Part shown: in pieces, positions 6,905-57,858 of the stretch | Numbering within the stretch: position 1 is the stretch's first letter | How the letters are laid out: each line of letters begins with the position of its first letter | DNA from: an uncultured Candidatus Saccharibacteria bacterium | Lineage (GTDB): Bacteria; Patescibacteriota; Minisyncoccia; Phycocordibacterales; UBA2100 | Reading direction: 5' to 3' | Length of the DNA: 64,000 nt | NCBI GenBank assembly: GCA_964424265.1 | Contig: CAYRHX010000002.1 | Location: 3,345-67,344, forward strand | Made by a program: the position numbers and the translations under genes | The notes under the pieces: generated by a model | What the model saw: the letters and a program-made list of their open reading frames with translations, nothing else | Told to the model about the DNA's origin: nothing | Databases searched by the model: none

Positions 6905-7165
6905 CTAATCGTAAATAGTGTGATCGCCGACGATGTGGAGTAGGGCTTCGCCACCAGCAACCCACTCGAACTTGATGCGGTTTTTACGATCGATCCAGAA
7001 GCCTAAGAACCCCTTATATTTACCGTGCAATTTATGTACTTTGAGCCTCTGGTGATTACTTCTATCCCTGAACAACTCGATTTTCTGGAATGCGTCCTCC
7101 TGTAGTTGCGGAGGAAGCTTCTTCAAACTTCGGAAGAACGCCGGCGTAAACCCAACGGTGACCAT
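6905..7165 (-). CDS. Type II toxin, RelE/ParE superfamily
   Basis: 86 aa; ...HKLHGKYKGFLGFWIDRKNRIKFEW..LLHIVGDHTIYD matches the RelE/ParE fold signature; immediately downstream of a small RHH gene with a 4-nt gap. Confidence 0.7.
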   Translation of the reverse strand: MVTVGFTPAFFRSLKKLPPQLQEDAFQKIELFRDRSNHQRLKVHKLHGKYKGFLGFWIDRKNRIKFEWVAGGEALLHIVGDHTIYD

Positions 7166-7169
7166 ACCG

Positions 7170-7388
7170 TTAGAATCTCTTTATCAACTCACGCGGGTCA
7201 CCATAAAGAACCTTCCCTTCTTTCGCCTCCTGCAAAGAGCGCTGCAGAGATGCGAATGTCGAGTCTTCCTCAAGGGCATCTATACTCAATCGCACTGCAT
7301 GCGCTTTGTTTGCCGCTCGGCCACTTTTGACAAGACCCTTGAGAAACCTCTCCTGCTTGGACGTTATGGGCACTGAAATGGTAACCAT
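7170..7388 (-). CDS. Type II antitoxin, ParD-like (ribbon-helix-helix)
   Basis: 72 aa; ISVPITSKQERFLKGLVKSGRAANKAHAVRLSIDALEE resembles the ParD/COG3609 pattern; paired with the downstream toxin. Confidence 0.6.
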   Translation of the reverse strand: MVTISVPITSKQERFLKGLVKSGRAANKAHAVRLSIDALEEDSTFASLQRSLQEAKEGKVLYGDPRELIKRF

Positions 7389-7499: not shown

Positions 7500-7547
7500 T
7501 TACCACGCAAAGTGGGCGAAGGCTTTGTTGGCTTCGGCTAGGCAGGC
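7500..7547 (-). repeat. Duplicated copy of the rpsG 3' end (encodes ...AEANKAFAHFAW*), direct repeat of 8574..8621
   Basis: ttaccacgcaaagtgggcgaaggctttgttggcttcggc is about 90% identical to the true rpsG 3' end ttaccacgcgaagtgggcgaaggccttgttggcttcggc; in frame behind the stop of the 317-aa ORF. Confidence 0.75.
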
Positions 7548-8501
7548 CTAGTAGCTTTTCTCAGGAGGCCTTTCCGTGCAACGATCAGCGGTGGTCACCA
7601 TTTTCTCATATCGCTCACCAGTGTATACGAACCAATACGTATGCAGTTTGTCGTACGCACAGTGGATGTTTACTGCTACGAATGAGGCTATATCCACATC
7701 ATTGATGACCTGGTCTTTGAAGAACACGTGTCGCTTGTCTTTAAAAAAGAAGGTGTTGAAATATCTATCCTCCGGAGCAGCGTCTCGTAAAGGGATACGC
7801 TCTGCTGTTTGAATGTCCATGAGCGTCATGTGTGCATAGTCGACGCTCGTATCGTCGTAATAATGGAGTTCGGCTTTTACACCAAAATCGCCGTTTCCAT
7901 TATTGAATCCTGATAGACCCGCTCGGGGGTCGTTTCTACCTCCCGCTTTTGTTGTCTGTGCTTGATCATTTCGAGCGATGTCGTAAAACGTGATCGACTG
8001 CATTATCATGCGACCAACCGCAGAGGCCACCGATGCTGAAGCATGCGGTTTGCCGATCCCAAATGGGAAGATCGCCTCGAAAGAACTGTCCTGGGTCGCT
8101 CCAATATAGAGATATTCGACAACACCATAATCGCTGGAGCTGTTCCGCGTTCGGTAGATAGTCTCAACGACAGTTTTTCCATCTACGAGAACATTCTCCT
8201 TTTTCTCGACAGAGAACGTCTCGCTGCCGTCAACGGGAACATTGTTGAGTGCCATGTACGGATCGCCGCTTGCACCTCCAGCATAGCAGGTGAGCTGAAT
8301 CCAGTTCGGATGGGCGATATGCGATTGACGTTTGGTGCAATCCCATCCGTTTACAGTGCCAAGTGAAATCCCGATCTCAGTCAATACGAAAGCCGCAGGA
8401 GCAGCGCTTCCTGTAACTGGCTCCGGCATCGGTGTGAAATACCAATAAGCACCGCCGCCAAGAAGAATGGAAGCTGCGAGCACACTGAGATATTTATTCA
8501 T
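7548..8501 (-). CDS. Hypothetical secreted protein (317 aa), cargo between rpsG 3'-end direct repeats
   Basis: Signal peptide MNKYLSVLAASILLGGGAYWYF; no recognisable catalytic motif. Confidence 0.5.
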   Translation of the reverse strand: MNKYLSVLAASILLGGGAYWYFTPMPEPVTGSAAPAAFVLTEIGISLGTVNGWDCTKRQSHIAHPNWIQLTCYAGGASGDPYMALNNVPVDGSETFSVEKKENVLVDGKTVVETIYRTRNSSSDYGVVEYLYIGATQDSSFEAIFPFGIGKPHASASVASAVGRMIMQSITFYDIARNDQAQTTKAGGRNDPRAGLSGFNNGNGDFGVKAELHYYDDTSVDYAHMTLMDIQTAERIPLRDAAPEDRYFNTFFFKDKRHVFFKDQVINDVDIASFVAVNIHCAYDKLHTYWFVYTGERYEKMVTTADRCTERPPEKSY

Positions 8502-8573: not shown

Positions 8574-9035
8574 TTACCACGCGAAGTGGGCGAAGGCCTT
8601 GTTGGCTTCGGCCATGCGGTGCGTCGTCTCTTTCTTCGTGGCAGCAGCGCCTTCACCCTTGTGTGCGGCCCTCAATTCGGCGAGGAGACTCTCGTGCATG
8701 GGCTTGCCCTTGGTGCCCTCAGCCGCTTCTACGATCCAGCGCATACCGAGTGAGAGCTTGCGATTGGGATTCACTTCGCGAGGCACCTGGTAGTTGGCGC
8801 CACCGACGCGGCGTGAGCGTACTTCCACGGAAGGAGATGCCTTCTCAAGCGCCTCTTCGAGGAAGGTGACAGGATCGCCATCTTTCTTCAGCTCATCCAT
8901 CACTTTGTAGACAATCTTGCGGGCAGTATCTTTCTTGCCGCGCTCCATGACGTAGTTGATGAGCTTCGCAACCTTAAAAGATCCGTACACTTCGTCCGGC
9001 TGAGGCTGCATTCTATTTTTTACGGGTCGTCGCAT
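8574..9035 (-). CDS. rpsG: 30S ribosomal protein S7
   Basis: MRRPVKNRMQPQPDEVYGSFKVAKLINYVMERGKKDTARKIVY... is canonical S7. Confidence 0.95.
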   Translation of the reverse strand: MRRPVKNRMQPQPDEVYGSFKVAKLINYVMERGKKDTARKIVYKVMDELKKDGDPVTFLEEALEKASPSVEVRSRRVGGANYQVPREVNPNRKLSLGMRWIVEAAEGTKGKPMHESLLAELRAAHKGEGAAATKKETTHRMAEANKAFAHFAW

Positions 9036-9533: not shown

Positions 9534-9547
9534 TTTGAATGAAAAAC

Positions 9548-9575
9548 TCCTGCCTACCGGCAGGCAGGCCCTAAG
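9548..9575 (-). terminator. Hairpin CCTGCC-TGCCGGTA-GGCAGG followed by a T-run on the minus strand
   Basis: Sits between the stop of the 107-aa gene and the rpsL start; minus-strand reading is cctgcctgccggtaggcagg agttttt. Confidence 0.45.
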
Positions 9576-9620
9576 GGAGTGCGAGGAGTGTACCTTATGA
9601 GATTTATAAAGTCCAGTTCT

Positions 9621-9944
9621 TTATGACCCACCCTTCACGACGACTTCTGCAAGCGCGTATATGGCTGCAGGAAAATCATCTTTTGGGACATCGCTCATGA
9701 CGCTGTCGACGATACTGAAGTGTTCATGCACAAACTTCTTGCAGCTCTCTTCTGAAACATTTTCAAGACCACCAATCTCCGTAAGAAAACCTCTTATGAG
9801 AGTAACCAGCCTTTCGGCATTTACCACTCTCTCAGAGTTCTCCCGGTACCGTCCTGCCTTCTCGGCAAATGGAAGCCCTTTTTCAGCCTTCTCTTGGTTT
9901 CTTATCATCTGACCAAGTGCCGTACCCTTTTCCCATTCCTTCAT
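9621..9944 (-). CDS. Hypothetical small protein (107 aa)
   Basis: ORF only; no motif. Confidence 0.3.
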   Translation of the reverse strand: MKEWEKGTALGQMIRNQEKAEKGLPFAEKAGRYRENSERVVNAERLVTLIRGFLTEIGGLENVSEESCKKFVHEHFSIVDSVMSDVPKDDFPAAIYALAEVVVKGGS

Positions 9945-9957
9945 ACAATGATTCTAG

Positions 9958-9981
9958 CACGACTACACCCCCGCAATCGTG
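9958..9981. repeat. 24-bp direct repeat (cacgactacacccccgcaatcgtg), copy 1; identical to the last 24 bp of the M50 protease gene
   Basis: Exact 24/24 match with 10685..10708. Confidence 0.8.
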
Positions 9982-9984
9982 GTT

Positions 9985-10509
9985 CTACTCAGTAGCACCT
10001 ATCGTCATATACCCCCCGCCGATTGTCGCTATAACAAAAAGCTCGTCCATCCCTGACGGATACATATACTTGAATCTGATGGCGGACACATTTGGGGATG
10101 TGACCCGAACACCCTGCAACACTGACCCTTCTCGAGGCTTCATTACGGTGGAAAACTTCCCATCATCCCCCATCATTTGCAGGACTTGTGTATTCGGGTC
10201 AAATCTAATAAATCGATCCGAGCCACGTAATATTTCCCCGGCATCTCTCCCATAAAAAACCTTGTCATTGACCTGTTCTCCCGCAGTGCTGTTATCATCA
10301 AGATCTCTCGCATATTTATCCAAATAACCAACACCTTCATCGAAACCTTTCTTGTATCCTTGGTGCTGCAGCTCATTAGCAACGATTGCTCCCCCGGCCA
10401 CTCCTGCCACCGCCGCCCCTATTTTTCCAAGAAGTTGTCTCCGCCCAACATTTTCAGGACCTTTGTCCACGGGACCCTTCCTCGTTAGATCTTCGTTCAT
10501 AATGGGCAA
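9985..10509 (-). CDS. Hypothetical exported protein with twin-arginine-like signal (RRQLLGKIGAAVAGVAGGAIVA)
   Basis: ORF; Tat-like motif; bracketed by the 24-bp direct repeats. Confidence 0.45.
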   Translation of the reverse strand: MPIMNEDLTRKGPVDKGPENVGRRQLLGKIGAAVAGVAGGAIVANELQHQGYKKGFDEGVGYLDKYARDLDDNSTAGEQVNDKVFYGRDAGEILRGSDRFIRFDPNTQVLQMMGDDGKFSTVMKPREGSVLQGVRVTSPNVSAIRFKYMYPSGMDELFVIATIGGGYMTIGATE

Positions 10510-10684
10510 TATATCACGGCCTATGCGTGTCTCGTTAAAGTCCGTGGATAAGTCGTGAAAGCTTTGATCTGAGCCAGATTTTCGCGCTTTTACACCTGCG
10601 TGATTTAATGCTTGCTAATTACGCCTCCTTTCCAAATCAAGCAATTTTGCGTCTTCCTTCAATATAGTAAGTACTGAACTTTGT

Positions 10685-10708
10685 CACGACTACACCCCCG
10701 CAATCGTG
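10685..10708. repeat. 24-bp direct repeat, copy 2 (forms the 3' end, ...HTIAGV*, of the M50 protease gene)
   Basis: Exact match to 9958..9981. Confidence 0.8.
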
Positions 10709-11385
10709 TGGGCGATGAGGTAGATGAAACTTCCGAAGGCATCGCCGAGAAGGAGTATGAAAATAACGATGGCACCCATGCCGAGAAATACATTTTGTTC
10801 CATCTTTGCCCGCCACTCTTCATATCCCCGCGCCAGAGATTGAGGAAGGAGCGACTGCAACACCTTTGACCCATCAAGCGGCGGAATGGGGATGAGGTTG
10901 AAAATGCCGAGCATTATATTTACAACAACGATGACAAAAAGAATATCGCTCATAGAGGCAAGCATCCCTGTACGAATGATGATCGATCCGATGACCGCGA
11001 TTACGAAATTCGACAAGGGTCCTGCAAAAGCAACGATTGCTTCGGAAAAACGGCCGGGGCGTAGATTGTAAGGATTGTACGGTACTGGCTTCGCCCATGC
11101 GAAAAAGAAGGGTGCCTGCGATAAAGCCAACATGACAGGAAGGAGGATCGAACCAAATAGATCGATGTGCGGAATGGGATTGAGTGTAAGTCGGCCAGCA
11201 TAGCGCGCGGTCGGATCCCCAAGCTTCTCGGCAGCAACGCCATGCATCACCTCGTGGATGATCGCAGAAAAGATGATGACCACTATGAGGAAAATCGTGT
11301 CAACAATTTGCATAAGCAGTTGCCGAATGGTACCATGCGCCGCTATATGGCAAGAGTGTGTGAAATAACAGGCAAGAAAAGCCAA
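10690..11385 (-). CDS. Site-2 protease family zinc metalloprotease (peptidase M50)
   Basis: Multi-TM protein with HEVMHGVAAEKLG (HExxH) and downstream FAGPLSNFVIAV LDG motifs typical of M50/SpoIVFB-like proteases. The start may be the internal Met at about 11313, since rpmB starts at 11347 on the other strand. Confidence 0.75.
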   Translation of the reverse strand: MAFLACYFTHSCHIAAHGTIRQLLMQIVDTIFLIVVIIFSAIIHEVMHGVAAEKLGDPTARYAGRLTLNPIPHIDLFGSILLPVMLALSQAPFFFAWAKPVPYNPYNLRPGRFSEAIVAFAGPLSNFVIAVIGSIIIRTGMLASMSDILFVIVVVNIMLGIFNLIPIPPLDGSKVLQSLLPQSLARGYEEWRAKMEQNVFLGMGAIVIFILLLGDAFGSFIYLIAHTIAGV

Positions 11386-11589
11386 GTGGGGGGCGGGTAT
11401 TCCAACCGCGTCCGCGCGACCAAATTCAATCCCACGGGCAAGCGCCGCCGCTTCGTAAACCTCCAGAAAAAGACCCTTTTCATCCCCGAACTCGGCAAGA
11501 AGGTCACCGTAGTGGTATCAGCAAAAGGCTTAAAGACAATGAAGAAACGCGGCGCATTTCTCACGCTCAAGAAGGCGGGGATGATCTAA
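11347..11589 (+). CDS. rpmB: 50S ribosomal protein L28
   Basis: MARVCEITGKKSQVGGGYSNRVRATKFNPTGKRRRFVNLQKK... is canonical L28; the track ORF 11167..11589 over-extends 5'. Confidence 0.85.
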   Translation: MARVCEITGKKSQVGGGYSNRVRATKFNPTGKRRRFVNLQKKTLFIPELGKKVTVVVSAKGLKTMKKRGAFLTLKKAGMI

Positions 11590-12440
11590 ATCTTCTGTAC
11601 GGTTTTGCCGTCGGATACAAACGAGACCGTACCGTCAGTGCACGTGTCTGAAAGCGATATCTGCAGTCGCGCAAACGTGTCGAGTGTTTGCTGGTGCGGA
11701 TGACCGTAGGTGTTGTCACACCCTCGCGAGAGCACACCGTACTCGGGACCAACGAATCCGACGAAGGCAAGTGCCGATGAGGTCTTCGATCCATGGTGTC
11801 CGGCTTTTAACACATCGGACCTTAGCTTCCCGCCGTCCAGAGCGACAAGATACTTTTCGATCGACTGCGGCGCGTCACATGAGAGCATGAAAGCAGTATC
11901 GCCATAGACAAGCCGCGCTACAACACATCCTGTATTCGTCTCGAGGTGCGGTACCAAGCGGTCAGGAAACAATATTTCGAGATACGCACCGCTGCCGAGG
12001 ACGATAATCTGCCCGCGTAACGCCGTCACCTGCCGCGCTTTCTCTTTCGCAATTCTCTCTCCAAGCGTACGCCACATCTGTGTATCACCTTCCACACTCG
12101 ACGTAATCGCCATCCCCACCTCGTACCTATCAAGTACATCAATAAGCCCACCGATATGATCGGCATCGGGATGCGTAGCGATCATTACATCAATACTACG
12201 GTCATACCACGGCATTACATCCGATAGCGCACGCAGCACAGAACTCCCCTTCCCACCGTCGATAAGTACTTGCCGCCCCGACGGGGCATCGATAAATATT
12301 GCGTCACCTTGCCCGACATCAAGAAATGAGACCGTGAGCATTCCACCCCGTTCTCCCCTCAAAACGACATACCAAACACAAGCGGAAATAATAATGAAGA
12401 CAAGGATCGCAATACCTCTTACCTTTGAACTGCGCCGCAT
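11586..12440 (-). CDS. ComEC C-terminal-type metallo-beta-lactamase domain protein (membrane-anchored), separate gene
   Basis: TM helix then LTVSFLDVGQGDAIFIDAPSG...IATHPDADHIGG...KAGHHGSKTSS... is the ComEC/Rec2 lactamase_B domain. Start chosen at MRRSSKVRG; the track ORF extends to 12488. Confidence 0.8.
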   Translation of the reverse strand: MRRSSKVRGIAILVFIIISACVWYVVLRGERGGMLTVSFLDVGQGDAIFIDAPSGRQVLIDGGKGSSVLRALSDVMPWYDRSIDVMIATHPDADHIGGLIDVLDRYEVGMAITSSVEGDTQMWRTLGERIAKEKARQVTALRGQIIVLGSGAYLEILFPDRLVPHLETNTGCVVARLVYGDTAFMLSCDAPQSIEKYLVALDGGKLRSDVLKAGHHGSKTSSALAFVGFVGPEYGVLSRGCDNTYGHPHQQTLDTFARLQISLSDTCTDGTVSFVSDGKTVQKI

Positions 12441-12463
12441 GGAGACAATGATATACTCTCCGC

Positions 12464-13060
12464 ATGCACACATACACTCCAAAAACATTTACCATCTCCG
12501 CACTCGACGGCATCTCTTCGAAATCAATTGAGGAACACTTGGGACTCTACCAAGGCTACGTGAAGAACTTTAATGCTATCTCCAAACAAATCGCGGAGCT
12601 TGCTACGAGTGATGCGGAGAAGTACACGCACGCAATTTCTGAGCTTGTACGTCGGCGCTCGTTTGAATTCGACGGCATGCGATTGCATGAGCTCTACTTT
12701 GCGCAGCTAGAAGGAGGGCCGACGCCACTCACCCAAGGAAGCGCGCTTGAGAAAGTGCTCATGAGCTCCTACGCGCCGTTTACATGCGAGAAAGTGATGA
12801 AGATGATCGGCAGCATGCGCGGGCCCGGCTGGGCAATACTCTATTTCGACCCTGAAGCAAAAGAGCTCCTTACTGGATTTTCTGGAGAACAACACCAAGG
12901 TCACTTCGCTACCCTCCCCATCATCCTCGCACTCGACGTGTGGGAGCACGCGTATCTGCTCGATTATGGCGCGCTCGGCAAGGCAAAATACCTCGACGCA
13001 TTTTTCAAGAATCTGAATTGGGGCGTCATCGAAAGGAGATTTGCTACGGCACAAAAGTAA
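12464..13060 (+). CDS. sodA: Fe/Mn superoxide dismutase
   Basis: ...HELYFAQLEGG...LALDVWEHAYLLDYGALGKAKYLDAFFKNLNW carries the SOD signature DVWEHAYY. Confidence 0.9.
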   Translation: MHTYTPKTFTISALDGISSKSIEEHLGLYQGYVKNFNAISKQIAELATSDAEKYTHAISELVRRRSFEFDGMRLHELYFAQLEGGPTPLTQGSALEKVLMSSYAPFTCEKVMKMIGSMRGPGWAILYFDPEAKELLTGFSGEQHQGHFATLPIILALDVWEHAYLLDYGALGKAKYLDAFFKNLNWGVIERRFATAQK

Positions 13061-13164
13061 CAAACACCAAAGCCCGGTTTCCACAACCAACCCCGCGCCG
13101 CCCTTTCACCCCAGAAAGGTATGGTATTCTGTACCTGTTACACCTTATTTATAATTATTACCTT

Positions 13165-13608
13165 ATGAACCTCGAACGATCATTTCTTATCGGTTTCCTC
13201 GGCAACTACCTGATCAACACTATCGTCGCAGCGATCGTCGCGCTTGCTCCCCGATCGACTACGGGTGGCGTGCTTACCATTCAGTACATACTCTTTGTCG
13301 GCCTCTCCGCAGTCGTGGTCGCAGGACTCGCCAAGTGGTATATGGGTGACGCACCTCGCACCATTAAGAGTGGCGCGCTCTTCGGCGTTATGGGTTTTGT
13401 TGTCGCCGTAGTCACAGCCTTTGTGACGGGTGTCGCCGGAGTCTTGGCTCAAACAGGCTCGTTTTCTGCTGTTGCAGGTGTCTTGCCTAATTTCTGGCCT
13501 TTCATCGCCAACTGGTCGACCCTCTTCCTCGTCGGCTACTGGATAATCCCAGGCGCACTCGTTGGATTCCTCCTCCAACCAAAAAGCGCTCAGCAGCCGA
13601 TGATGTAA
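13165..13608 (+). CDS. Hypothetical integral membrane protein
   Basis: MNLERSFLIGFLGNYLINTIVAAIVA... has several TM segments; the start is uncertain (the track ORF begins at 12940, overlapping sod). Confidence 0.4.
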   Translation: MNLERSFLIGFLGNYLINTIVAAIVALAPRSTTGGVLTIQYILFVGLSAVVVAGLAKWYMGDAPRTIKSGALFGVMGFVVAVVTAFVTGVAGVLAQTGSFSAVAGVLPNFWPFIANWSTLFLVGYWIIPGALVGFLLQPKSAQQPMM

Positions 13609-13628
13609 TCAGCTTCGTACATTGCCAG

Positions 13629-13657
13629 AAAACAGCCGCGCTTGTCGCGGCTGTTTT
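13629..13657. terminator. Bidirectional terminator hairpin AAAACAGCCGCG-cttgt-CGCGGCTGTTTT
   Basis: Seen directly between convergent gene ends. Confidence 0.55.
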
Positions 13658-15138
13658 CATTTACGCAACCACAACCACGCGACGCCCAAGAGTATGTACG
13701 CCCCAAGCATCCACCATGCACTGAAGGCAGGAATCGAGACAGCCGCAAAAGGGAGCGCTGCGAAGGACTGCGCAACGGCGATGATGTACCAAAGCAGTGC
13801 GTACGCTGGCGCCGCGAGAGGAAGCGCATACGAGCCAAACATCATTCCACCCAGTGCCGCAACGAACGACGCGCCCATCGCGTAGGGCACCGCCACGAGT
13901 GCGAGCAGATTGGCGGGCAGTGCAACCAAGGAAAAGAGTCCATTTTGAAAAAGGAGGAGGGGTAAAACTGTGATCTGTGTGGCGACGGTAGACGAGAAAA
14001 TTTCCCGCAAGCCAAATTTTTCTGGCATCCATACGAGTCGCGCTGACAAGGGCTCCGTAAAAAGAATGAGACCGAGTGTTGCGAGTATCGACAACTGGAA
14101 TCCTGGGTCAAAAGCGAGGTACAGCGGATTCCACGCTACCATCCCAAGCGCGACCACACCCAAAATACGGAGAGCTAAGAAGGTGCGCGCCGTCGCACGC
14201 GCGTAGACCGCAATCATGGACATAGCGCCGGCGCGCACCGCGCTCGGAGCTCCGCCCGTCATCAAGACGACAAAAAGCACCGCCGAGGCAATCCCCCCAT
14301 ACTGGACAACTCTGGGAAGAAAGACGAGTCCCCGGCGCACCATGTTGATGACAATAGTGATGTTGTATCCCGAAAGCACCACGACGTGAATGAGAGAAGC
14401 GGTTTTGAACACTTCGGAAAGCTCTTTCCCGATCGAACGTTTGTCACCGACGGTGATTCCCCCCGCAAGTCCTGATTCGGGCTCCGGCAGGACCGCTTGG
14501 AGCCCTGCGAGAAATGTATGCTTCACCGCGATCGCGGATGCTTGCAATATATTGCCGTGATTTTCACCGAGTGATTCCGCCTCGGCGGAGATGAGCATGT
14601 ATCCGATCCCATCTTTTGCGAGAAACATCGGATAATTAAATTGTCGACCCTCGCTCGTACCAAACGATTCGGGTAGTTCGAGGACCCCTTCCACTCGCAC
14701 GGTATCGCCATATGCGATCTTCGTGTGCGCCGGGACCACGGCGAGGATGCCTGTGCGCACGGACACCGACGTACTTCCGACGAGAAGCGCCGTGACGTCG
14801 ACATGTACACGGATGTTGGATTCTCGCACATCAAGGTCACCCACAACCACCCCTTCGACAACGACTTTTGTATTCAAACGCTCATCGAGCACAGAATCCC
14901 CCATCGAGGCCACGCTCGCCACACGCAGCGCACCGAGAGCAAATGCGCACAATGCGATCACAATGAAGATAGAACGACGTACTCCTGATTTCTCAAGCCA
15001 TGAGATGAGCAGCGTGACGAGTGCGAGCAATAAAAGGAAGACGAGCGTGGCAAAGCCGATGAAGAAAAAGGAGCTCACGAAAACGCCGGAAAGAAATCCG
15101 ACGATAACAGCCCACACGATGTGCGTGACCATCGACAC
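13657..15138 (-). CDS. comEC: ComEC/Rec2 N-terminal channel part (DUF4131 + Competence domain), lacks the lactamase domain
   Basis: 493-aa polytopic membrane protein, ...VVLSGYNITIVINMVRRGL...; domain recognition by eye. Confidence 0.75.
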   Translation of the reverse strand: MSMVTHIVWAVIVGFLSGVFVSSFFFIGFATLVFLLLLALVTLLISWLEKSGVRRSIFIVIALCAFALGALRVASVASMGDSVLDERLNTKVVVEGVVVGDLDVRESNIRVHVDVTALLVGSTSVSVRTGILAVVPAHTKIAYGDTVRVEGVLELPESFGTSEGRQFNYPMFLAKDGIGYMLISAEAESLGENHGNILQASAIAVKHTFLAGLQAVLPEPESGLAGGITVGDKRSIGKELSEVFKTASLIHVVVLSGYNITIVINMVRRGLVFLPRVVQYGGIASAVLFVVLMTGGAPSAVRAGAMSMIAVYARATARTFLALRILGVVALGMVAWNPLYLAFDPGFQLSILATLGLILFTEPLSARLVWMPEKFGLREIFSSTVATQITVLPLLLFQNGLFSLVALPANLLALVAVPYAMGASFVAALGGMMFGSYALPLAAPAYALLWYIIAVAQSFAALPFAAVSIPAFSAWWMLGAYILLGVAWLWLRK

Positions 15139-18567: not shown

Positions 18568-18628
18568 GCGCGTGATTGTACCTCAACGCCCAACCCGTTG
18601 TCTGCAAAACAAGATTCCTTAGACCGAC

Positions 18629-18916
18629 TCACGAAGAGTTGTGCTTTTTGTAGACACGATCGTGATGGTCAAAGTCAATCAGGCGCACCTCGCGAGCCCT
18701 GATTTCATACAGAAGCACAAACGATCCCTTGACGTGAACGCGTCGATAATTACGGAGCGTGTGTCGTAGGGGCTTTCCAATTTCCGGTTCGCGAACAAGC
18801 TTAGCAAAATGCGCGGTAAGCTCCCGCACCAGATCCGGCTTTTTCTTTTTTAGATGTCGAATTACACGTTCAAAATTGAGAGAGAATGTGAGCGTATATC
18901 TGTCGCCCTCACTCAT
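18629..18916 (-). CDS. Type II toxin, RelE/ParE family
   Basis: 95 aa; ...KLVREPEIGKPLRHTLRNYRRVHVKGSFVLLYEIRAREVRLIDFDHHDRVYKK fits the RelE/ParE pattern. Confidence 0.75.
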   Translation of the reverse strand: MSEGDRYTLTFSLNFERVIRHLKKKKPDLVRELTAHFAKLVREPEIGKPLRHTLRNYRRVHVKGSFVLLYEIRAREVRLIDFDHHDRVYKKHNSS

Positions 18917-18919
18917 AGA

Positions 18920-19186
18920 CTACATTCTTTCGATAAACGCTTGCGCATCTTTAGCCGAAGTAAAGCGTCGACCCTTTCCCCGATCAAGCGCGAGCGATTC
19001 TCGTTCAAGTAATCTCATTTTCTGTTGTGTGACCCTATCGACAATCCCCACGCTGAGCGTGCCGTCAGCAAACGCTCGTGCTGCAAACTTGAGCACCGAT
19101 GCAAATGGGATACCGTCGCGCTTTGCGCGCTTCATTGCCCGAGCTTTGATCTTCGGATCTATATTGAATACAACCTGTGTTGTCAT
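18920..19186 (-). CDS. Type II antitoxin, RHH (RelB/DinJ/ParD-like)
   Basis: 88 aa; VVFNIDPKIKARAMKRAKRDGIPFASVLKFAARAFADG; 3-nt gap to the toxin. Confidence 0.65.
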   Translation of the reverse strand: MTTQVVFNIDPKIKARAMKRAKRDGIPFASVLKFAARAFADGTLSVGIVDRVTQQKMRLLERESLALDRGKGRRFTSAKDAQAFIERM

Positions 19187-19334
19187 GTGTATAGTTTATA
19201 TATAGCTAATATATATGTCAATGCTTAAGGAGAAACAATCTCAAAGCACAGGCAATCGAGGATCCGTGGGGGATGCTCCATATGGACATGGGATTGAATT
19301 TGCTCTCTATATCATATACTTTATACTCTCTTTT

Positions 19335-19742: not shown

Positions 19743-22700
19743 AAAGCGACCGGACCAGGACAGGGTCCGTTACTAATCATGGTCGCGCCAGCAGCATTGA
19801 GGTTGCACACGCTTGAGTATGTGACAGGCGGCACGGCTGCACAGGCCACTCCTTGCGGACAAATCCCTCGAGGGGGTGCGCCGCACACCGGCTTATACAA
19901 GTCAGGGCATCTAATGGGGGCTGAGCCGACCTCAACTGTTGCTGTCGCCTTCGCTGTTTTTCCTCCCGAATCACGGACAAGCATTTTCACTGTGTAAGTA
20001 CCCGCACGGGCATAGCTGTGTGTGAACGTCGTTGATTGCGCCACGGCAGCTCCAGGATAGAAGAAGCTAGCGGGGGCGATCCTCGCATACCATTCATCTC
20101 CCCACTCTATTGAATAGGTGAGCGTGCCGTTTTCAGGGTCCGATGCTTGGACTCTCCATGTGCCTGTGGCGCCTACCGCGAGTGTGGTTGGTCCAGAGAA
20201 CGAAGAGATGACGGGAGACTGATTGTCGTCTGAGGATGTAAAGTACGCCCTACAATACGGATCTTGCGTAGGAGATCCTTCTGCCCGGATGCATGCCATC
20301 ATTGTGCACATCGCAGGAGCTCCGGGAGACGATCGGCTGCACGTATTACATCCATCAAACCAGGATTTGCAACGTGGATCCGCTTCGGGATTCGAGGCGG
20401 TAGGGCGACACGCACCTTCGTACGCAAACGTCGCACCATCTGCCCGCATCGCACATGCATTACTGTAGGTCTGCTGGACAGGATTGCACGGTGTCGTGAT
20501 GCATTGCACCTGCTTCGAGCCACAAACCGGATTGTACTCCATCGTACATGCTTGCGGTCCTCCACCCCCACCTTCGCACCATCGCATCATCTGATTACGA
20601 GAGAGTGGGCCGAACATGCCGAGAGCAGGGAGGCCTTGCGACGACTGCCATCTGGAAACTGACTGTGCGGTGACAGATCCGAAGTGGCCCGTGGGGTCGG
20701 TAGTGAAGTATCCCTGTTCTCGCAAGAATTCTTGCAGTCTCCGCACGTCGTCTCCCCAAAGGCCTACTGAGAGATCGCGGTAGAGCGCTTTGCAGATCGG
20801 ATGCTTGGGAGGGACGGGATTGGGGGTTGGCGGTTGTGGAGCCGGTCGACACGCCCCTTCGTATGCAAGCGTCGCGCCATCGGCCTTCATCTTGCACTTG
20901 TTGCCGTATGTCGTCGGCACCGGATCACACGGTGTCGTGATACAAACGATCGGCTTCTTGCCGCAGACGGGTATGTATTCCTCTGTGCATGCGATCGTGA
21001 CTCCGGTATTATTCGCGCAGTTCCCGGCAGTGTCGCGCGTGTAGCCTACAGGTACGCCGATTTGTATATCCTGGATGTTGGCACACGCATCTATTGTCAT
21101 TCCCGTGCATGTCGATGGCCACACTGCGGGACACGGATGAATCGGGCCGATGTGGCAATTTCCGTTGGTCTTGGAATAACCATTGGGTACAACGGCCTGT
21201 GCTCCTAGAATGTTTGGACAGAGATCGGTGATCGAATCTTGCGAGGTGACCGTGATCATCGTGGCGCCTGCCCACACGTCTTGTGTGAAGCTGCCGTTGA
21301 ATTGGTTCACATCAGAAAAGTCGTATATCTTCGCTCGTATTGTGTAGGTGCCTGCCTCTGCGTATGTGTGAATGCCACACGGTGCGTTGCGTCCGTTTTG
21401 CGTGGGATACGTGCCGTCGCCCCAATCAATTGAGAATGTACGGCCGCCAAAGCGGGGCTGATTGTTCGTACACTCTGAAGAAACGAGCGACCTCCATTCT
21501 TCAGGAAAGATAGCCGAGACGGTAAGCGGCGCCTCCCCTGAGGTGGGAGACGCTGAAAATGCCGATATCGGAGGCAAGCACCCAACCCCTCCCACACCTT
21601 CCGCACAAACATGCGGAGCGAGATCAATTATTATAGGGACTGGAACGGGCATTTTATTGTATAGATCTGCCACCTGAGTTTCGGATAGAGCCGTCTTGTA
21701 GTACACGAAGTTTGCCAACGACCCCTTGAAATGATTGATGCCGTTGGGGTAGTAGCCAGGCATATCGTACATGCGACCGATTGAGGGCATCGAATTGTGG
21801 TACCCCCTGTTGTTTGACGCTACGTCGATGGTCTTCACAGGCCGACCATTTAGATACACGGTCGAAGCGCTGCCCGTATTTACCCACGTCATGTGATTCC
21901 AGGTACCTGATATATTCCTCGACAATGGCACTTCGTACTGCCGCGCCGATGCACAACCGCTACCCAAAAGCGAAGATCCATTTTTGTCCGCACGGATAAA
22001 CACCGAATCTGCATCTACCGATAGCACGAGGTCATTTCCGTTGTTGCCATCCGCGTCGGAGAAGATCGTGCCGCAACTCGTACCCATGAAATACACCCAC
22101 GCTCCGATCGTAAATTCGTTTGAATCAGGTACCGGGGTCATCGAAACATACGAGTCAGTGCCATTAAACTGTAGTGGGCCTTTCCATGAGAGGACGGGGG
22201 TGGGTTCGGCAACACTCCCGACCGTGATCGTCGCCGTGCTAATGACCGTATCTTGTACAAGGCCGAGAGAACATGCAATCATGGTGAGAATATTCCCGCT
22301 GCACTTTTCCAAGAGACGCGCCGCGTAGGTGCCGGGACTCGCATACGTATGTGCCTTAAATACCGCGCATTTGTTGGCGAGAAAAGCCTGCTCCGAACAA
22401 CCCATTCCCACATTCAAGGCGAGCGTTGTGCCGTCGCCAAACTCAAGCATGTGCTGCATCGAAGCCTCGCGAGGGATGGTGAAGGTCACGGCAAGTGGAG
22501 CTATGCCCGATGTCGGAGATGCCGTGAACGGTGGGGACACCGACGGTGTCACAACGGGATTGGCAGGAACCTCTGGTCCATTGGACATCACGTACTTAAC
22601 GGCAATACGAACGGTGCTGTCGGAGGCCGTGGTTACATTAAAAGAGCAGATGAGACCGGTGCATCGCACAGGAGTAGTAAACTGGCTCACCGAGCAGGGC

Positions 22701-28739: not shown

Positions 28740-29957
28740 TTAAATATTTTGTGAGAGCCCATAGATCGGCGCGATCATGGCGACCGCGAAGAAGCCTACC
28801 GCGCCGCCGATGAAGAGCATGAGGAATGGTTCGATTATGGTCGACATGTCTTTCGTATTGCGATCTACTTCGTCTTCATAAAAGATCGCTATTCGCTTCA
28901 TCATCTCGCCCACATCCCCCGTCTCTTCCCCAACAGCCATCATCTCGCCCACAAACGGAGGGTACAAATCGGGGCGACGCATAAATGCGGCCGAAAGCGG
29001 CTGGCCCGATGAAACCGAGCGCGACGCATCTTCAATGACTGCTCGAAAATACGAATTTTGCACAACATCTTTCACGATAGCGAGCGCACTTATCACATCA
29101 ACGCCCGAGGAAAGAAGCGATGCGATCGTGCGCGCGGTGCGCGCCGCGTTGACCTCGCGAACCATGTTGCCAATGAGTGGGATGTGCAAGAAGCCGAAAT
29201 CGATACTGCGACGTCCCCATGCTGTGCGCGATACGAAATAGATCGTAGCAACAAGGCCAAACACACTCCCGAAAGCGAGAAAGGTGTGCTGAGTGAGAAA
29301 ATTGCTCACCCCGATCACAAACTGTGTCGTGGCAGGTAATTCCCCACCCATTTCTTTAAACGTCGCCGCGAGAGTGGGCACTACTTGCGTCATCATGAGA
29401 TACCCAACACCAACAATTGCTACGAGAATGACGCATGGATATACGAGAGCGCCACGAATCTTTCTTTTCAAGGTATACATGCGCTCGGTTTGATCGGCAA
29501 TTACCTGAAGTGACTGCGATAACCCGCCGCTTTCTTCGCCAGCGCGCACCATGGCAACAAAAAGCCGCGAGAAGACACCCGGATTCTTTGAAAGCGCGCT
29601 GAAGAGCGTGTCTCCCCTTCGCACATCACTCGCCACTTGCGATAACGTGAGCGACATTTTCGCGTTCTTCGTCTGCCGCTCCATGAGCGCAAGCGCTCGC
29701 GAGAGCGAGAGACCCGCGGAAAGCATCGCGCCCAGATTTCGCGCAAAAAGGATTTTCTCATACTCAGTTACGCGCGAAAGCAGCGCGTTCCAATATGTAA
29801 GACTCAGCATGCTTCTGGCCCCCACCTCATGAATGAAGAGGAGATGGGCGCCTTCGCGTCTGATAATGTTGTAGACTTCAAAACGATCTGCAGCATCTGC
29901 GACTCCTTTGTAAATCTCACCGTCGGCCTTTTCCGCCGTGTACGTGTAATGCGCCAT
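28740..29957 (-). CDS. pilC: Type IV pilus assembly platform protein PilC (GspF family)
   Basis: 405 aa, polytopic, two T2SS-F domains (MAHYTYTAEKADGEIYKGV...). Confidence 0.9.
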   Translation of the reverse strand: MAHYTYTAEKADGEIYKGVADAADRFEVYNIIRREGAHLLFIHEVGARSMLSLTYWNALLSRVTEYEKILFARNLGAMLSAGLSLSRALALMERQTKNAKMSLTLSQVASDVRRGDTLFSALSKNPGVFSRLFVAMVRAGEESGGLSQSLQVIADQTERMYTLKRKIRGALVYPCVILVAIVGVGYLMMTQVVPTLAATFKEMGGELPATTQFVIGVSNFLTQHTFLAFGSVFGLVATIYFVSRTAWGRRSIDFGFLHIPLIGNMVREVNAARTARTIASLLSSGVDVISALAIVKDVVQNSYFRAVIEDASRSVSSGQPLSAAFMRRPDLYPPFVGEMMAVGEETGDVGEMMKRIAIFYEDEVDRNTKDMSTIIEPFLMLFIGGAVGFFAVAMIAPIYGLSQNI

Positions 29958-30012
29958 TTATGTTTAGTATAGCGCGCGAAACGCGCCCGAATTTCTTTTT
30001 CCACTCTACACA

Positions 30013-40587: not shown

Positions 40588-42117
40588 ATGTCACTAAAAA
40601 TCATTTTATTCCTGCTCGCCAGTGCGGGCCTTGTCGGTATCGGGATCGGATATTACCTCCGAGTTATTATTTCGTTAGGTAAACGCGGCTCAATGGAGCT
40701 CGAGATCAGGAAAATGATGCTCGACGCGGAGGAGCGTGCCAAGAAGATTTCTGAAGAGGCCGACCAGCGTGCAAAACACAAGGAGGAGCACGCGACCGAT
40801 GGATTGAAGGAGCGCGAGAAGGAGCTCAAGCAAGTGGAAGAGCGTCTCATTCGCAAAGAAGAGCTGCTCGACAAGCGTCAGACTAACCTCGATTCGGAGC
40901 AAGAATCGCTCGCGAAGAAAAACGAGGATGTGATCGCCTCGAAGGCGCGCGTTGAGGAGCTTGCCCGCGCACAGCAAGAAAAACTCGAGAAAATCGCTGG
41001 ACTTTCTGCAGAGGAAGCCAAGGCTGATCTCATAAAATCAGTCGAGAAACAATCCGAAACAGACATCGAGAGCCGCATGCGTAAGCTAGAGATCTCCGGC
41101 AACGACCAGCTCGAACATCGTGCGAAGGAAATCCTCACAACCGCAATTCATCGCCTCGGCAATTCAGTAGTCTCCGACGTCCTTGCAACGACCATTTCGC
41201 TGCCCAACGAGGAAATCAAAGGCAAAATCATCGGCAAGGAAGGTCGCAACATTCGCGCGTTTGAGCGTGCGACAGGTGTCGATGTCATCGTCGACGACAC
41301 ACCGGGCACCATCACCCTCTCTTCGTACGATCCGATCCGCCGACAGATCGCGCGCATTGCGCTCGAGAATCTGATCATCGACGGACGCATCCAACCCGCA
41401 AAGATCGAGGAGTCCGTGCAGAAAGCTGAGCAAGAAATCAACAACATCATCAAGAAAAAAGGCACCGAAGCCGCCTTCGAAGCACGCGTCACCAACCTTG
41501 ACCCCAAGCTCCTTATGATCCTCGGTCGTCTCTACTTCCGCTCGAGCTATGGGCAAAACGTCCTCGATCACTCGGTGGAAGTCGCGCACTTGGCCGGCAT
41601 GCTCGCCGCTGAGCTTGGCGCAAACGAGGCAACAGCTCGCGCAGGCGCGCTCTTCCATGACATCGGCAAAGCGGTCGACCACGAAGTGCCTGGTACGCAC
41701 GTAGAGATCGGTCGCCGCATCTTGCAGAAATTTGGCGTTGGAGAAGACGTGGTAAAGGCGATGCAAGCGCACCACGAAGAATACCCATACGAAACGCCCG
41801 AATCCATGATCGTGCAAGTAGCCGACGCGATTTCTGGCGCACGCCCTGGCGCACGCCGCGACTCAGTAGAAAACTACATCAAGCGACTCACTGAGCTCGA
41901 AGCAATCGCCAATGGCAATCCGGGCGTCGAAAAGAGCTATGCAATCGCCGCAGGACGCGAAGTCCGCGTCATTGTGAAGCCCGCTGAAATCACCGACCTC
42001 GATGCACGCAAACTCGCCCGCGACATCGCGGACAAAATAGAAAAAGACATGCAATACCCCGGAGAGATCAAGATCTCCGTCATTCGCGAAACCCGCGTGA
42101 TCGAGTACGCGAGATAG
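40588..42117 (+). CDS. rny: Ribonuclease Y
   Basis: N-terminal TM, coiled coil, KH (...IIGKEGRNIRAFERATGVDVIVDD...), HD (HSVEVAHLAGMLAAELG...ALFHDIGKAVDHE). Confidence 0.9.
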   Translation: MSLKIILFLLASAGLVGIGIGYYLRVIISLGKRGSMELEIRKMMLDAEERAKKISEEADQRAKHKEEHATDGLKEREKELKQVEERLIRKEELLDKRQTNLDSEQESLAKKNEDVIASKARVEELARAQQEKLEKIAGLSAEEAKADLIKSVEKQSETDIESRMRKLEISGNDQLEHRAKEILTTAIHRLGNSVVSDVLATTISLPNEEIKGKIIGKEGRNIRAFERATGVDVIVDDTPGTITLSSYDPIRRQIARIALENLIIDGRIQPAKIEESVQKAEQEINNIIKKKGTEAAFEARVTNLDPKLLMILGRLYFRSSYGQNVLDHSVEVAHLAGMLAAELGANEATARAGALFHDIGKAVDHEVPGTHVEIGRRILQKFGVGEDVVKAMQAHHEEYPYETPESMIVQVADAISGARPGARRDSVENYIKRLTELEAIANGNPGVEKSYAIAAGREVRVIVKPAEITDLDARKLARDIADKIEKDMQYPGEIKISVIRETRVIEYAR

Positions 42118-42149: not shown

Positions 42150-42383
42150 ATGAAGTCCCGTTACTCGTATCAAATCTTTCTGCGACCAGAGCAAGAGGGT
42201 GGCTATACAGTTATTGTCCCATCTCTGCCCGGATGCGTGACCTACGGAAAGACCGTTGAAGAAGCCAACGAAATGGCCGAAGATGCTATCCGCGGCTACC
42301 TTGCCAGCATGCGCAAACACGGAGAGAAAATCCCTTTGGAAGACAAGGGGAACATCATCGCCACAGCAACAGTGGCAGTTTGA
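42150..42383 (+). CDS. hicB: HicB-family antitoxin
   Basis: YSYQIFLRPEQEGGYTVIVPSLPGCVTYGKTVEEANEMAEDAIRGYL is HicB/UPF0150-like. Confidence 0.75.
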   Translation: MKSRYSYQIFLRPEQEGGYTVIVPSLPGCVTYGKTVEEANEMAEDAIRGYLASMRKHGEKIPLEDKGNIIATATVAV

Positions 42384-42601
42384 CCAGTATGCCCCGGCTG
42401 CCGTCGCGCACAGGCAAACAAATCGTCCGCATTCTGCTGCAGAATGGCTTCGTACTCGACCACGTTACCGGCAGTCACCATATCTTTGTCAACATAGACA
42501 CGAGTCGTCGAGTAACTATTACTGTTCACAATAAAGATATTCCCAAAGGAACACTTCGGGAGATTCTCAAGCAAGCCGGATTGTCCGCAGAGGATTTGTA
42601 G
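42380..42601 (+). CDS. hicA: HicA-family mRNA interferase toxin
   Basis: KQIVRILLQNGFVLDHVTGSHHIFV... is HicA/YcfA-like; 4-nt overlap with hicB. Confidence 0.8.
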   Translation: MTSMPRLPSRTGKQIVRILLQNGFVLDHVTGSHHIFVNIDTSRRVTITVHNKDIPKGTLREILKQAGLSAEDL

Positions 42602-42610
42602 GCGAGTTTC

Positions 42611-42700
42611 GTAGATAAAATAGAAAAGGATGCGCAATACCCAGGAGAAATTAAAGTAAGCGTGATACGAGAGACACGGGCTATCGAGTACGCTAGATAG
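42611..42700 (+). repeat. Diverged duplicate of the rny 3' end (encodes [28 protein letters not shown]), direct repeat of 42027..42117
   Basis: About 75% nt identity and 25/28 aa identity to the true rny C-terminus; follows the hicA stop in frame. Confidence 0.75.
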
Positions 42701-50886: not shown

Positions 50887-51822
50887 CTACTTCCTCCGCT
50901 TTCCGTGGAAAGATTTGTGCACCTCTCGGAGATGCTTGTCGGTCACGTGCGTATAGACCTGCGTCGTTGCAATGTTGGCGTGTCCAAGAAGCGCCTGCAC
51001 CGAGCGAAGGTCCGCCCCATTTTCGAGTAGATCGGTGGCAAAGCTGTGGCGGATCACGTGCGGTGTCACTTTGCGTGTGATGCCCGCCTTAATCGCATAC
51101 TGCTTCACAAGCCGCTCGACTGATCGGGGAGTGATGCGCGAAAGATCTTTGTTTACCCTAAGCGTAGTCGAAAAGCCTTTTCCACCACCTTTCCCATACG
51201 ACACAAACAGGGCATCACTCATATCACCCCGCTTTTTGATATACGCCGCGACCGCTTCCTTCGCAGAAGGAGAGAGGAAGACCACGCGTACTTTCTCACC
51301 CTTGCCACGTACCGAAAACTCGTCGCGCGTGAGATCAAGATCCTGATTCAAATTACACAACTCCGACACACGCAAGCCTGTAGAAAAAAGTAGCTCAAGT
51401 ATCGCGCGATCACGGAGCGCGGGAAGCTCGTCGCCTGTCGGCGCTTTCATGATGCGATTCAACTCATCGGCAGTGATGAGATCGAGATCGCGGCCACCCA
51501 CTTTCGCAAGCTCGATGCGCTCGGGATTGAGCGATTCGACATCGCGCTTGCGAAGAAACTTGAGGAACGCGCGTAGCGCAATGAGGTGGTAATTTTGCGT
51601 GTTCTTCTTCATCGTGCCCGCGACGCCACTCGAGCGATTAAGCGTAATCCGAAATTCACGGACCTTCTGCTCTGTGATATCACGCGGGGAAGAGACCTTT
51701 GCGAAATTGAGAAAACGCATGATGTAGCGATCGTAATTTTCGACCGTCTTCACGCTCCGTCCTTTTTCGATCTCGATGTATTCGAGGAATTGCGTTTTGA
51801 GAGATTTGAGGTCAGTGGCCAC
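50887..51822 (-). CDS. xerD: Tyrosine site-specific recombinase, XerC/XerD family
   Basis: N-terminal SAM-like domain; catalytic core ...TGLRVSEL... / ...HVIRHSFATDLLENGADLRSVQALLGHANIATTQVYTHV. Confidence 0.85.
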   Translation of the reverse strand: MATDLKSLKTQFLEYIEIEKGRSVKTVENYDRYIMRFLNFAKVSSPRDITEQKVREFRITLNRSSGVAGTMKKNTQNYHLIALRAFLKFLRKRDVESLNPERIELAKVGGRDLDLITADELNRIMKAPTGDELPALRDRAILELLFSTGLRVSELCNLNQDLDLTRDEFSVRGKGEKVRVVFLSPSAKEAVAAYIKKRGDMSDALFVSYGKGGGKGFSTTLRVNKDLSRITPRSVERLVKQYAIKAGITRKVTPHVIRHSFATDLLENGADLRSVQALLGHANIATTQVYTHVTDKHLREVHKSFHGKRRK

Positions 51823-57558: not shown

Positions 57559-57603
57559 TTGACGCGCCACAGACCTTTGTTATAATTTGGTTATAACATA
57601 ACC
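57559..57603 (+). promoter_or_regulatory. Putative promoter TTGACG-16-TATAAT followed by inverted repeat GGTTATAAC-ATAACC (57589-57603) upstream of the AbrB-Doc TA operon
   Basis: Seen directly; a plausible autoregulatory operator. Confidence 0.45.
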
Positions 57604-57614
57604 GCCTTACATGT

Positions 57615-57857: not shown

Positions 57858-57858
57858 C

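Follow-up and report, generated by a model that had tools for sequence, protein, structure and literature searches.

The 64-kb stretch of DNA analysed here (the window) comes from an uncultured Candidatus Saccharibacteria bacterium (GenBank assembly GCA_964424265.1, contig CAYRHX010000002.1, positions 3,345 to 67,344) and carries, between the gene for a site-2 protease of the M50 family (M50) and rpsL, a small orphan gene, c171, that is bracketed by two identical 24-bp copies of the M50 gene end. The explanation that we favour, with confidence that stands at about even, is that this 24-bp repeat is a recombination scar in an accessory-gene hotspot between M50 and rpsL. The same process would have acted on rpsG and rny here and, in related Patescibacteria, on these two genes and on fusA, where a host gene tail, a small cargo and a second tail follow one another and the host gene is left intact. 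In these sister cases the two tails differ mostly at synonymous positions.

A duplicated M50 gene end brackets c171

An exact search of the window recovered the 24-mer CACGACTACACCCCCGCAATCGTG exactly twice, at 9958-9981 and 10685-10708 in plus-strand coordinates, where a first-pass annotation of this DNA had placed it; allowing up to three mismatches added no further match in the window, with none expected from 100 shuffles. Its sequence on the minus strand, which is the coding one, is C ACG ATT GCG GGG GTG TAG TCGTG, that is, the third base of a histidine codon, the codons for T-I-A-G-V, the stop and 5 nt past the M50 gene, 19 of the 24 nt being coding. The copy at the M50 terminus had been said to encode HTIAGV and the stop, of which TIAGV and the stop are present whereas histidine contributes its third codon base only. 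The other copy lies 3 nt past the stop of the bracketed gene, as the first-pass annotation had it, and the likelier start of that gene is the ATG at 10500, which gives the 171-aa form found in public databases. The copies are spaced 727 nt start-to-start with 703 nt between them, in agreement with the single-gene segment of about 700 bp that the repeats had been proposed to delimit, and the M50 open reading frame (ORF) is intact despite the duplication of its tail. No similarity was found past the 24 nt on either side of the two copies, and a candidate decayed extension (TGAAGGAA after both copies) was not significant.

Both copies of the 24-mer, at the 727-nt spacing, are present in seven separate contigs, one per sample or run (seven samples or runs), so the arrangement is not an assembly artefact. 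A chance repeat is at odds with the shuffles and with the position of the copies at a gene end, which agrees with two other cases in the window, and we therefore regard chance or misassembly as next to impossible as a source of the pair. Nor is the 24-mer the common intergenic motif against which the first-pass annotation had warned, since a search of 241 million metagenome records returned no exact match. An extragenic palindrome of the repetitive extragenic palindromic (REP) or bacterial interspersed mosaic element (BIME) type was rejected on the same counts, two copies in 64 kb and none in the metagenome records, and on the largely coding content of the repeat. Also rejected was a different upstream gene in contigs L006-L008, which hold the same M50, its open upstream frame having been read through.

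The contig belongs to a Paceibacteria/Kaiserbacteria-like population of Patescibacteria. The order ComEC, superoxide dismutase, metallo-beta-lactamase-fold protein, L28, M50, rpsL, rpsG and, further along, fusA is kept in dozens of related genomes. In six relatives (L012, L013, L015, L022, L053 and L096, whose M50 is up to 76% identical) rpsL follows the M50 stop after no more than 43-75 nt, and their short spacer includes a leader that is conserved (…TAGTACACTCCTCGCACTCCC…GGGAGTTTTTCAT…ATG). The window has this leader directly upstream of rpsL, and c171 and a second orphan gene outside the repeats, p107, were therefore both added to a short ancestral spacer. Unrelated genes occupy the slot in other relatives, such as two ORFs in L095 (M50 80% identical), and the M50-rpsL interval is a variable slot that here contains the orphan gene c171. 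The search for empty sites suggested by the first-pass annotation thus succeeded in part: it yielded the six short M50-rpsL spacers, but no M50-p107 junction without c171. The databases contained no contig with p107 but without c171, and because every p107 contig has c171 no empty site of the same strain was found.

Among 5.8 billion proteins c171 has no relative except itself, and its sole homologue among 1.8 billion cluster representatives is P0122 (37% identity, E = 2e-10), whose gene adjoins tsaE, in an unrelated context, and has no repeats on its flanks. The two proteins align over their full length and have the motifs RR, KVF, EIL, FIRFD, DGK, PRE, YP.G and GGY in common; c171 is a real gene. 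Its N-terminal RRQLLGKIGAAVAGVAGG, kept as RREALRTIGGAAVGFAAG in P0122, consists of an RR motif followed by a hydrophobic stretch and is compatible with a twin-arginine translocation (Tat)-type signal or a membrane anchor, while no signal model of Pfam or NCBIfam matched this N-terminus and neither tatA nor tatC turned up in the 64-kb window. The predicted structure of c171 is poor (predicted local distance difference test score, pLDDT, of 42 with a two-sequence alignment), with an N-terminal helix and a beta-rich C-terminal domain. No relatives of p107 were found, and NCBIfam provides no name for c171, p107 or the gene c317 described below.

In a separate observation on the same slot, the rpsL-leader hairpin at 9549-9568 is enlarged in this lineage (CCTGCCTGCCGGTAGGCAGG then TTTTT) relative to the short GGGA/TCCC-type hairpin of the relatives, and, lying only about 15 nt ahead of the rpsL start, scores as a terminator.

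The same architecture at rpsG and rny

Scanning the window for direct repeats with at least 17 matching bases in pairs within 4 kb returned three gene-tail pairs only, those of M50, rpsG and rny, and a protein-level comparison of every ORF tail with its downstream 3 kb scored 129 for rny and 69 for rpsG against a background maximum of about 45-55. The first-pass claim that rpsG and rny have the same architecture as M50 thus holds, and extends to relatives. No motif common to the M50, rpsG and rny repeats was found.

At rpsG, a tail of 39-44 nt is duplicated, with 37 of the 39 nt of its core identical and both core mismatches synonymous. The two tails bracket c317, a 317-aa gene with a signal-peptide-like N-terminus that is not homologous to the L096 gene in the same slot. 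Homologues of the ParD/RelE-like pair of the window are followed by an rpsG-tail copy in L016 and L015.

At rny, which encodes RNase Y, the tails bracket a HicB-HicA antitoxin-toxin pair, and the duplication spans about 87 nt, far more than the 18-mer reported in the first-pass annotation. The codon differences between the two tails comprise 15 synonymous and 4 conservative changes. The copy has a foreign codon usage: its GC content at third codon positions (GC3) is 0.36 versus 0.65 in the gene body (p=0.004), with which the functional tail agrees; a call of native versus foreign by GC3 is clear only for this copy. The rny copy is in frame with HicA, with one TAG between them, but the idea that tail copies are read in frame with the cargo gene, while true for HicA and c317, fails for c171 and L016, so that the frame agreement is ascribed to chance.

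Recurrence in related Patescibacteria

We surveyed 77 metagenome loci for rny and found that in most the HU gene follows it, usually within about 150-300 nt, which is the ancestral order. Five further loci (L099, L100, L102, L126 and L136) instead have an insert and then an rny-tail copy. In L099, L100 and L102 the insert is a homologous opposite-strand pair with YafQ/ParE-toxin and RelB-antitoxin matches below the Pfam cut-offs; L136 has a strongly matching PemK/MazF toxin whose MazE-like antitoxin is a weak match, and L126 a TrmB-type regulator together with an ORF without assigned function. Tail copies of rpsG are present in L009, L015, L016 and L025, the one in L016 standing right after the ParD/RelE-like pair, and in L015 fusA is followed by a Phd/ParE pair and then two successive fusA-tail remnants. 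Many loci carry inserts without any tail copy.

The bracketed toxin-antitoxin pairs fall into four families; the matches to HicAB, the MazF-type toxin and Phd/ParE exceed the Pfam cut-offs, and those to YafQ/RelB and MazE are weak. Across slots the cargo is heterogeneous, with toxin-antitoxin pairs making up most of it.

Several individual loci merit description. The fusA-tail remnants of L015 (8782-9668) end in …VQDDIIMSRK and …VQDDIIASRK, each followed by a stop, and suggest repeated events at one site. L009 has a solo rpsG-tail copy (8327-8406) 46 nt past the rpsG stop, with cargo downstream of the copy and not between copies; all 8 codon differences within ANKAFAHFAW are synonymous. In L025 (10092-11411) a 439-aa ORF 3.3 kb downstream of rpsG ends in an rpsG-like tail (…QEIAESNGVFAHFT, then the stop) that is fused in frame. 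Finally, L074 (1064-2618), which belongs to a more distant genome of Patescibacteria, has a 106-aa ORF whose tail (…RQKRWKNYKKDFISIINPQILSFSKKTK) reappears about 1.2 kb further downstream with a score of 119, and the pattern may thus extend beyond the str-operon and rny sites.

Divergence and boundaries of the second tails

Comparing host tail and copy across six rny pairs, we counted 70 synonymous and 13 nonsynonymous codon differences. For copies that start out identical, the downstream one then decaying freely, a ratio of 70:13 would have a P of about 1e-16; under this null about 60% of differing codons would be nonsynonymous, a rough estimate to which the result is insensitive. The rpsG and fusA pairs have the same synonymous bias. 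From this bias we conclude that the second tails diverged within working genes of other lineages and are not target-site duplications.

Tail copies begin 35-106 nt before the stop at rny and 24-52 nt before it at rpsG; this left boundary thus varies at one and the same gene, while the right boundary is always the stop codon. A variable left and a fixed right boundary would fit a joint at which homology stops at the gene end, the other joint being arbitrary. Between L099 and L102 identity amounts to 88% in the cassette, 91% at the cassette-to-copy junction, 83% in the rny body and 73-74% in both tails, and the rny tails are recombination mosaics whose downstream copy seems to have been overwritten from functional alleles. 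The GC3 pattern of the L099 tails is seemingly the reverse of that in the window. A swap by crossover position, in which the host tail of L099 would correspond to the second tail of L102, was unsupported (65% identity).

A proposed recombination route to the duplicated tails

The marks at rny, rpsG and fusA, namely one joint at a homology end, one arbitrary joint, different alleles and no enzyme of an element, read as those of a scar. For M50, a c171-bearing and a c171-less allele would have recombined, and, given the identity of the copies, the two would stem from one strain or from very close relatives. One junction would have been homologous, or a single crossover would have fallen within the M50 tail, and the other junction would have been illegitimate, so that the 703-nt c171 segment came to be flanked on either side by the final 19 nt of M50 and the 5 nt that follow. 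We infer that the route was DNA uptake by natural transformation followed by homology-facilitated illegitimate or Campbell-type recombination. The incoming DNA could have been cargo with a tail or, indistinguishably, a cassette-free block starting inside the donor's gene tail, and likewise c171 or the tail copy together with p107; entry of a cassette-free block is possible in view of L009, where cargo lies downstream of a solo tail copy.

Homology-facilitated illegitimate recombination is described in Acinetobacter, Streptococcus pneumoniae and Pseudomonas stutzeri. One end is anchored by homology, the other is illegitimate and no recombinase gene is involved, which fits the variable left and fixed right boundaries. 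However, the process usually comes with a deletion in the recipient and not with a short duplication, it is not known from Patescibacteria, and microhomology is not evident at the joints here. It occurs during natural transformation (PMC3240628), and natural competence has been demonstrated in Patescibacteria (PMC10633639); the window encodes uptake machinery of the kind that this route assumes (Table 1).

For other bacteria it has been proposed that toxin-antitoxin islets devoid of a recombinase lie between core genes and spread through recombination in their flanks (PMC13617665). They are likewise tiny inserts of toxin-antitoxin genes only, placed between conserved genes, with no mobile-element genes and with high turnover at particular spots, but no duplicated gene tails are described for them. 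A double crossover in both flanks leaves no tail copy, so an extra step, a single crossover or an illegitimate joint, is needed here. Toxin-antitoxin cargo probably predominates since loss of addictive modules is counter-selected, and the identical repeats flanking c171 would make its scarless loss possible.

The M50 hairpin and competing explanations

The 24-mer folds end to end into a sense-strand hairpin of 10 pairs (7 Watson-Crick and 3 G.U) with a GGGG loop, at -11.5 kcal/mol for the sense RNA versus -2.5 kcal/mol for the antisense, and at -3.4 kcal/mol as single-stranded DNA. End-to-end hairpins with 9 or more pairs are rare among the 24-mers of the window (0.17%), as are an energy of -11.5 kcal/mol (0.3%) and Watson-Crick symmetry at 7 or more of 10 positions (0.4%). 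The inner stem is made by the conserved I-A-G-V/M-stop codons, and the outer five pairs (CACGA…TCGTG) exist in this lineage only: at the same 24 M50 positions of 81 relatives no fold lies below -6.1 kcal/mol. An intrinsic terminator was rejected since, despite the hairpin, neither copy is followed by a U-tract.

Several observations weigh against a recombination scar. The boundaries of the M50 repeat coincide exactly with the foot of this lineage-specific hairpin or imperfect palindrome, a coincidence not expected of an illegitimate joint made at random but expected of a recombinase core site, of a staggered cut in a hairpin or cruciform, or of exonuclease trimming stopped at the hairpin. With 24 of 24 nt identical, the M50 pair has no synonymous signal, and its kinship with the other cases is one of architecture alone; being identical, the copies carry no information on their origin, the two alleles, if there were two, would be from the same or very close strains, and the event could have taken place within one genome. 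No tail copy of M50 was found in more than 80 related loci, and the insertion was not caught in the act, no database strain having an empty M50-p107 junction. In all three cases of the window the second tail lies 0-12 nt from the cargo stop, tighter than random joints would give, so that trimming or selection is needed. RecA-type recombination would have had only short homology segments to work on (24-100 nt with 70-85% identity), and transformation is demonstrated in the phylum, not in this lineage.

The hairpin foot finds a direct explanation if the 24-mer is the att core of a tyrosine recombinase acting in trans, be it Xer-like or encoded elsewhere in the genome, with two imperfect inverted 9-bp arms around a 6-bp spacer and with c171 as a non-autonomous cassette between attL and attR, comparable to a cis- or trans-mobilisable element at a gene 3' end. 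The stretch of identity coincides exactly with an imperfect palindrome of 24 bp (7/10 Watson-Crick), whose size and symmetry are those of a minimal tyrosine-recombinase core, so the site itself would explain the boundaries; in addition, the copies are perfect, the gene is restored as in icd with prophage e14, and a tyrosine recombinase is present in the window. That enzyme, however, is encoded 40 kb away and scores as a housekeeping XerC/XerD/XerA, no recombinase lies in or next to the cassette, and no other 24-mer exists in the window or the 241 million metagenome records. The hairpin is absent from the M50 tails of 81 of 81 relatives, so there is no conserved attB, the rny and rpsG cases have variable boundaries and no shared motif, and the three non-Watson-Crick pairs are all sense-strand G.U, which suits RNA or single-stranded DNA folding equally well. 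We hold site-specific integration at M50 to be unlikely, if worth keeping in mind. A true target-site duplication, in which both feet of the hairpin or cruciform are nicked, c171 DNA is ligated and gap filling duplicates the 24 nt, with a geometry like that of CRISPR repeat duplication or casposon integration, would likewise put both repeat boundaries at the hairpin foot and leave identical copies, and the hairpin is found only in the lineage with the duplication. It is nonetheless quite improbable in our estimate: no enzyme candidate was found, there being neither Cas1 nor a transposase, the segment ends have no terminal inverted repeats, the palindrome in double-stranded DNA has 3 mismatches in 10 pairs and the single-stranded fold is weak, and M50 is a single instance whose sister cases cannot be target duplications. 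Taken together, site-specific and structure-directed insertion at M50 retain a sizeable minority of the probability.

That the hairpin is stronger on the sense strand, with all wobbles G.U there, and that both copies stand at ORF ends would suit a functional 3' stem-loop in RNA (a terminator without a U-tract, an mRNA stabiliser or a processing site) kept after both the M50 and the c171 messages. Function, however, conserves structure and not identity at 24 of 24 nt, so a copying event would still be required; moreover, there is no U-tract, the M50 genes of the relatives do without such a hairpin, and other genes of the window end in ordinary terminators. The prospect of this RNA function as the explanation of the repeat is slim. 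Finally, it is conceivable, though doubtful, that the clade has a way, not described before, of moving small cassettes into the 3' ends of essential genes as units of cargo plus a portable, functional tail copy, with, at M50, a structure-specific enzyme that cuts both feet of the 24-nt hairpin. The tail copy could then act as a homology arm that targets the gene of the next host, or as a decoy that catches cassette-free DNA and guards the cargo, typically an addiction module, from curing by transformation.

Search for an insertion enzyme and comparison with known elements

From the three window cases the first-pass annotation had inferred a recurring 3'-end-targeted insertion mechanism and had suggested a search for a recombinase of matching specificity. 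For the pattern as a whole a single such mechanism is not supported, in view of the lack of a shared motif, the variable left boundaries, the synonymous divergence of the copies and the absence of a recombinase from the insert ORFs scanned. The only recombinase of the window is the Xer-like enzyme; none was found in or adjoining the c171 cassette, and a scan of 30 larger ORFs from the corresponding slots of relatives (M50-rpsL, rpsG-fusA and rny-HU) yielded neither a recombinase nor a transposase. As expected of an integrase-type insertion, the M50 pair combines repeats of a gene 3' end (24/24, TIAGV, stop and 5 nt) with an intact gene, but independent insertions at rny and at rpsG do not share a crossover point; M50 is a single case.

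Other element classes were considered and rejected. A transposon or insertion sequence with target-site duplication is contradicted by the absence of terminal inverted repeats at 9982 or 10684 and of a transposase, and by sister duplications that are 24-106 nt long, non-identical and synonymously diverged. For an integron gene cassette, the IntI models score far below their cut-off on the Xer-like protein (no attC model was applied), and the repeat is M50 coding sequence homologous to the M50 tails of relatives. A diversity-generating retroelement finds no reverse transcriptase in the annotated window, where RVT_3 occurs only beside RNase_H on a 138-aa RNase H-type protein; the M50 repeat, moreover, is 24 nt long without a mismatch, and the mismatches of the other pairs are synonymous, at third positions and of all kinds.

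Integrative and conjugative elements (ICE), integrative and mobilizable elements (IME) and cis-mobilizable elements (CIME) integrate at gene 3' ends (fda, rpsI, rpmG and similar) in streptococci, and homing-endonuclease genes carry a foreign gene tail, for example at atp6 in Allomyces mitochondria. The atp6 type likewise has a foreign C-terminal segment on the resident gene, a mobile ORF and a displaced native tail, but is driven by a DNA endonuclease, whereas the cargo here consists of RNase-type toxins, regulators and orphans in which no endonuclease domain was detected. In ICE, IME and CIME, as in tycheposons, direct repeats of the target gene 3' end flank the insert, and repeated use of a site leaves several remnants, with which the two fusA remnants of L015 may be compared; these repeats are, however, fixed att cores produced by a dedicated integrase, while we found no integrase, fixed core or shared motif. 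Tycheposons leave partial tRNAs (10.1101/2020.12.28.424599).

The closest layout is that of prophage e14 in Escherichia coli K-12, where a functional tail, inserted DNA and a displaced C-terminal pseudo-copy with mostly synonymous differences follow one another as in the window. There icd extends into e14, the displaced icdC lies on the far side and recombination between the two tails restores a chimeric working gene (PMC13626634, citing Hill, Gray, Brody). Unlike e14, which is 15 kb long and has its own integrase and a fixed crossover site, the inserts here measure 0.6-1.5 kb, have no recombinase and have variable boundaries, and the M50 copies in particular are only 24 nt long and identical.

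Implications

Gene-end duplication at insertions is already known; what would be new is its occurrence in Patescibacteria, mostly on either side of toxin-antitoxin pairs and with no integrase. In literature coverage that was incomplete, we found no papers on gene-tail duplications around toxin-antitoxin islets or in Patescibacteria. The genomes of Patescibacteria are tiny, recognisable mobile elements are few in them, and the gain and loss of genes in this phylum is poorly understood. Duplicated gene tails offer a marker, readable from sequence alone, of single gene-flux events beside core genes, and since codon choices of another lineage persist in the second tail, each scar records the involvement of foreign DNA. 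Under the favoured explanation, a recombination scar, the pattern would tie toxin-antitoxin islets to a concrete recombination outcome, which is testable now that some Patescibacteria are transformable. The M50 hairpin, if not a coincidence, would point to a structure-directed insertion activity.

Features of the window and additional observations

Table 1. Position and strand of the features discussed, in window coordinates
Feature	Position	Strand	Remark
ParD-like antitoxin (7170-7388) and RelE-like toxin (6905-7165)	6905..7388	-	weak NCBIfam matches below curated cut-offs
rpsG tail copy	7500..7543	-	directly after c317 stop; terminator hairpin next
c317, bracketed by rpsG tails	7548..8501	-	317 aa; signal-peptide-like N-terminus
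Functional rpsG tail (…AEANKAFAHFAW, stop), H1 of second case	8574..8617	-	
Ancestral rpsL leader (…GGTACACTCCTCGCACTCCC…, hairpin, then TTTTTCAT)	9534..9620	-	directly after M50 stop in empty-site relatives
p107, second orphan gene in M50-rpsL slot	9621..9944	-	107 aa; outside the repeats
Repeat copy H2	9958..9981	-	identical 24 nt; 3 nt past c171 stop (TAG, 9985-9987), 13 nt before p107 ATG
c171, bracketed gene	9985..10500	-	171 aa from ATG (174 aa from TTG at 10509)
Region between H1 and c171 start	10501..10684	-	184 nt; no similarity to sequence after H2
Repeat copy H1, functional M50 tail + 5 nt	10685..10708	-	24 nt; sense-strand hairpin (10-bp stem, 4-nt loop)
M50 (site-2 protease family, Peptidase_M50), host gene of duplicated tail	10690..11313	-	from ATG; longest ORF to 11385
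ComEC (DNA-uptake channel)	13657..15138	-	uptake machinery assumed by favoured mechanism
Pilus ATPase/platform genes	28740-31755		uptake machinery assumed by favoured mechanism
Functional rny tail, H1 of third case	42031..42117	+	rny stop at 42117
HicB antitoxin (42150-42383) and HicA toxin (42380-42601)	42150..42601	+	bracketed by rny tails
Diverged rny (RNase Y C-terminus) tail copy	42614..42700	+	65/87 nt identical
Xer-type tyrosine recombinase	50887..51822	-	311 aa; only recombinase of the window; 40 kb from repeats

Four toxin-antitoxin-type pairs lie within the 64 kb, namely the ParD/RelE-like pair (6905-7388), an 88-aa ORF with ParE (about 18600-19200), HicAB (42150-42601) and a MazE-like gene with Fic (about 57600-58300). 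ComEC is seemingly split over 11586-15138 into a part with DUF4131 and Competence domains (13657-15138) and a metallo-beta-lactamase-fold part (11586-12488), between which lie superoxide dismutase and a 147-aa opposite-strand gene in an order conserved across the clade. A 149-nt internal repeat (20403-20551 and 20844-20992, 70% identity) is present in the gene for a 1295-aa surface protein with PKD, Laminin_G and PG_binding domains, and gave a false tail-copy match for a spurious antisense ORF.

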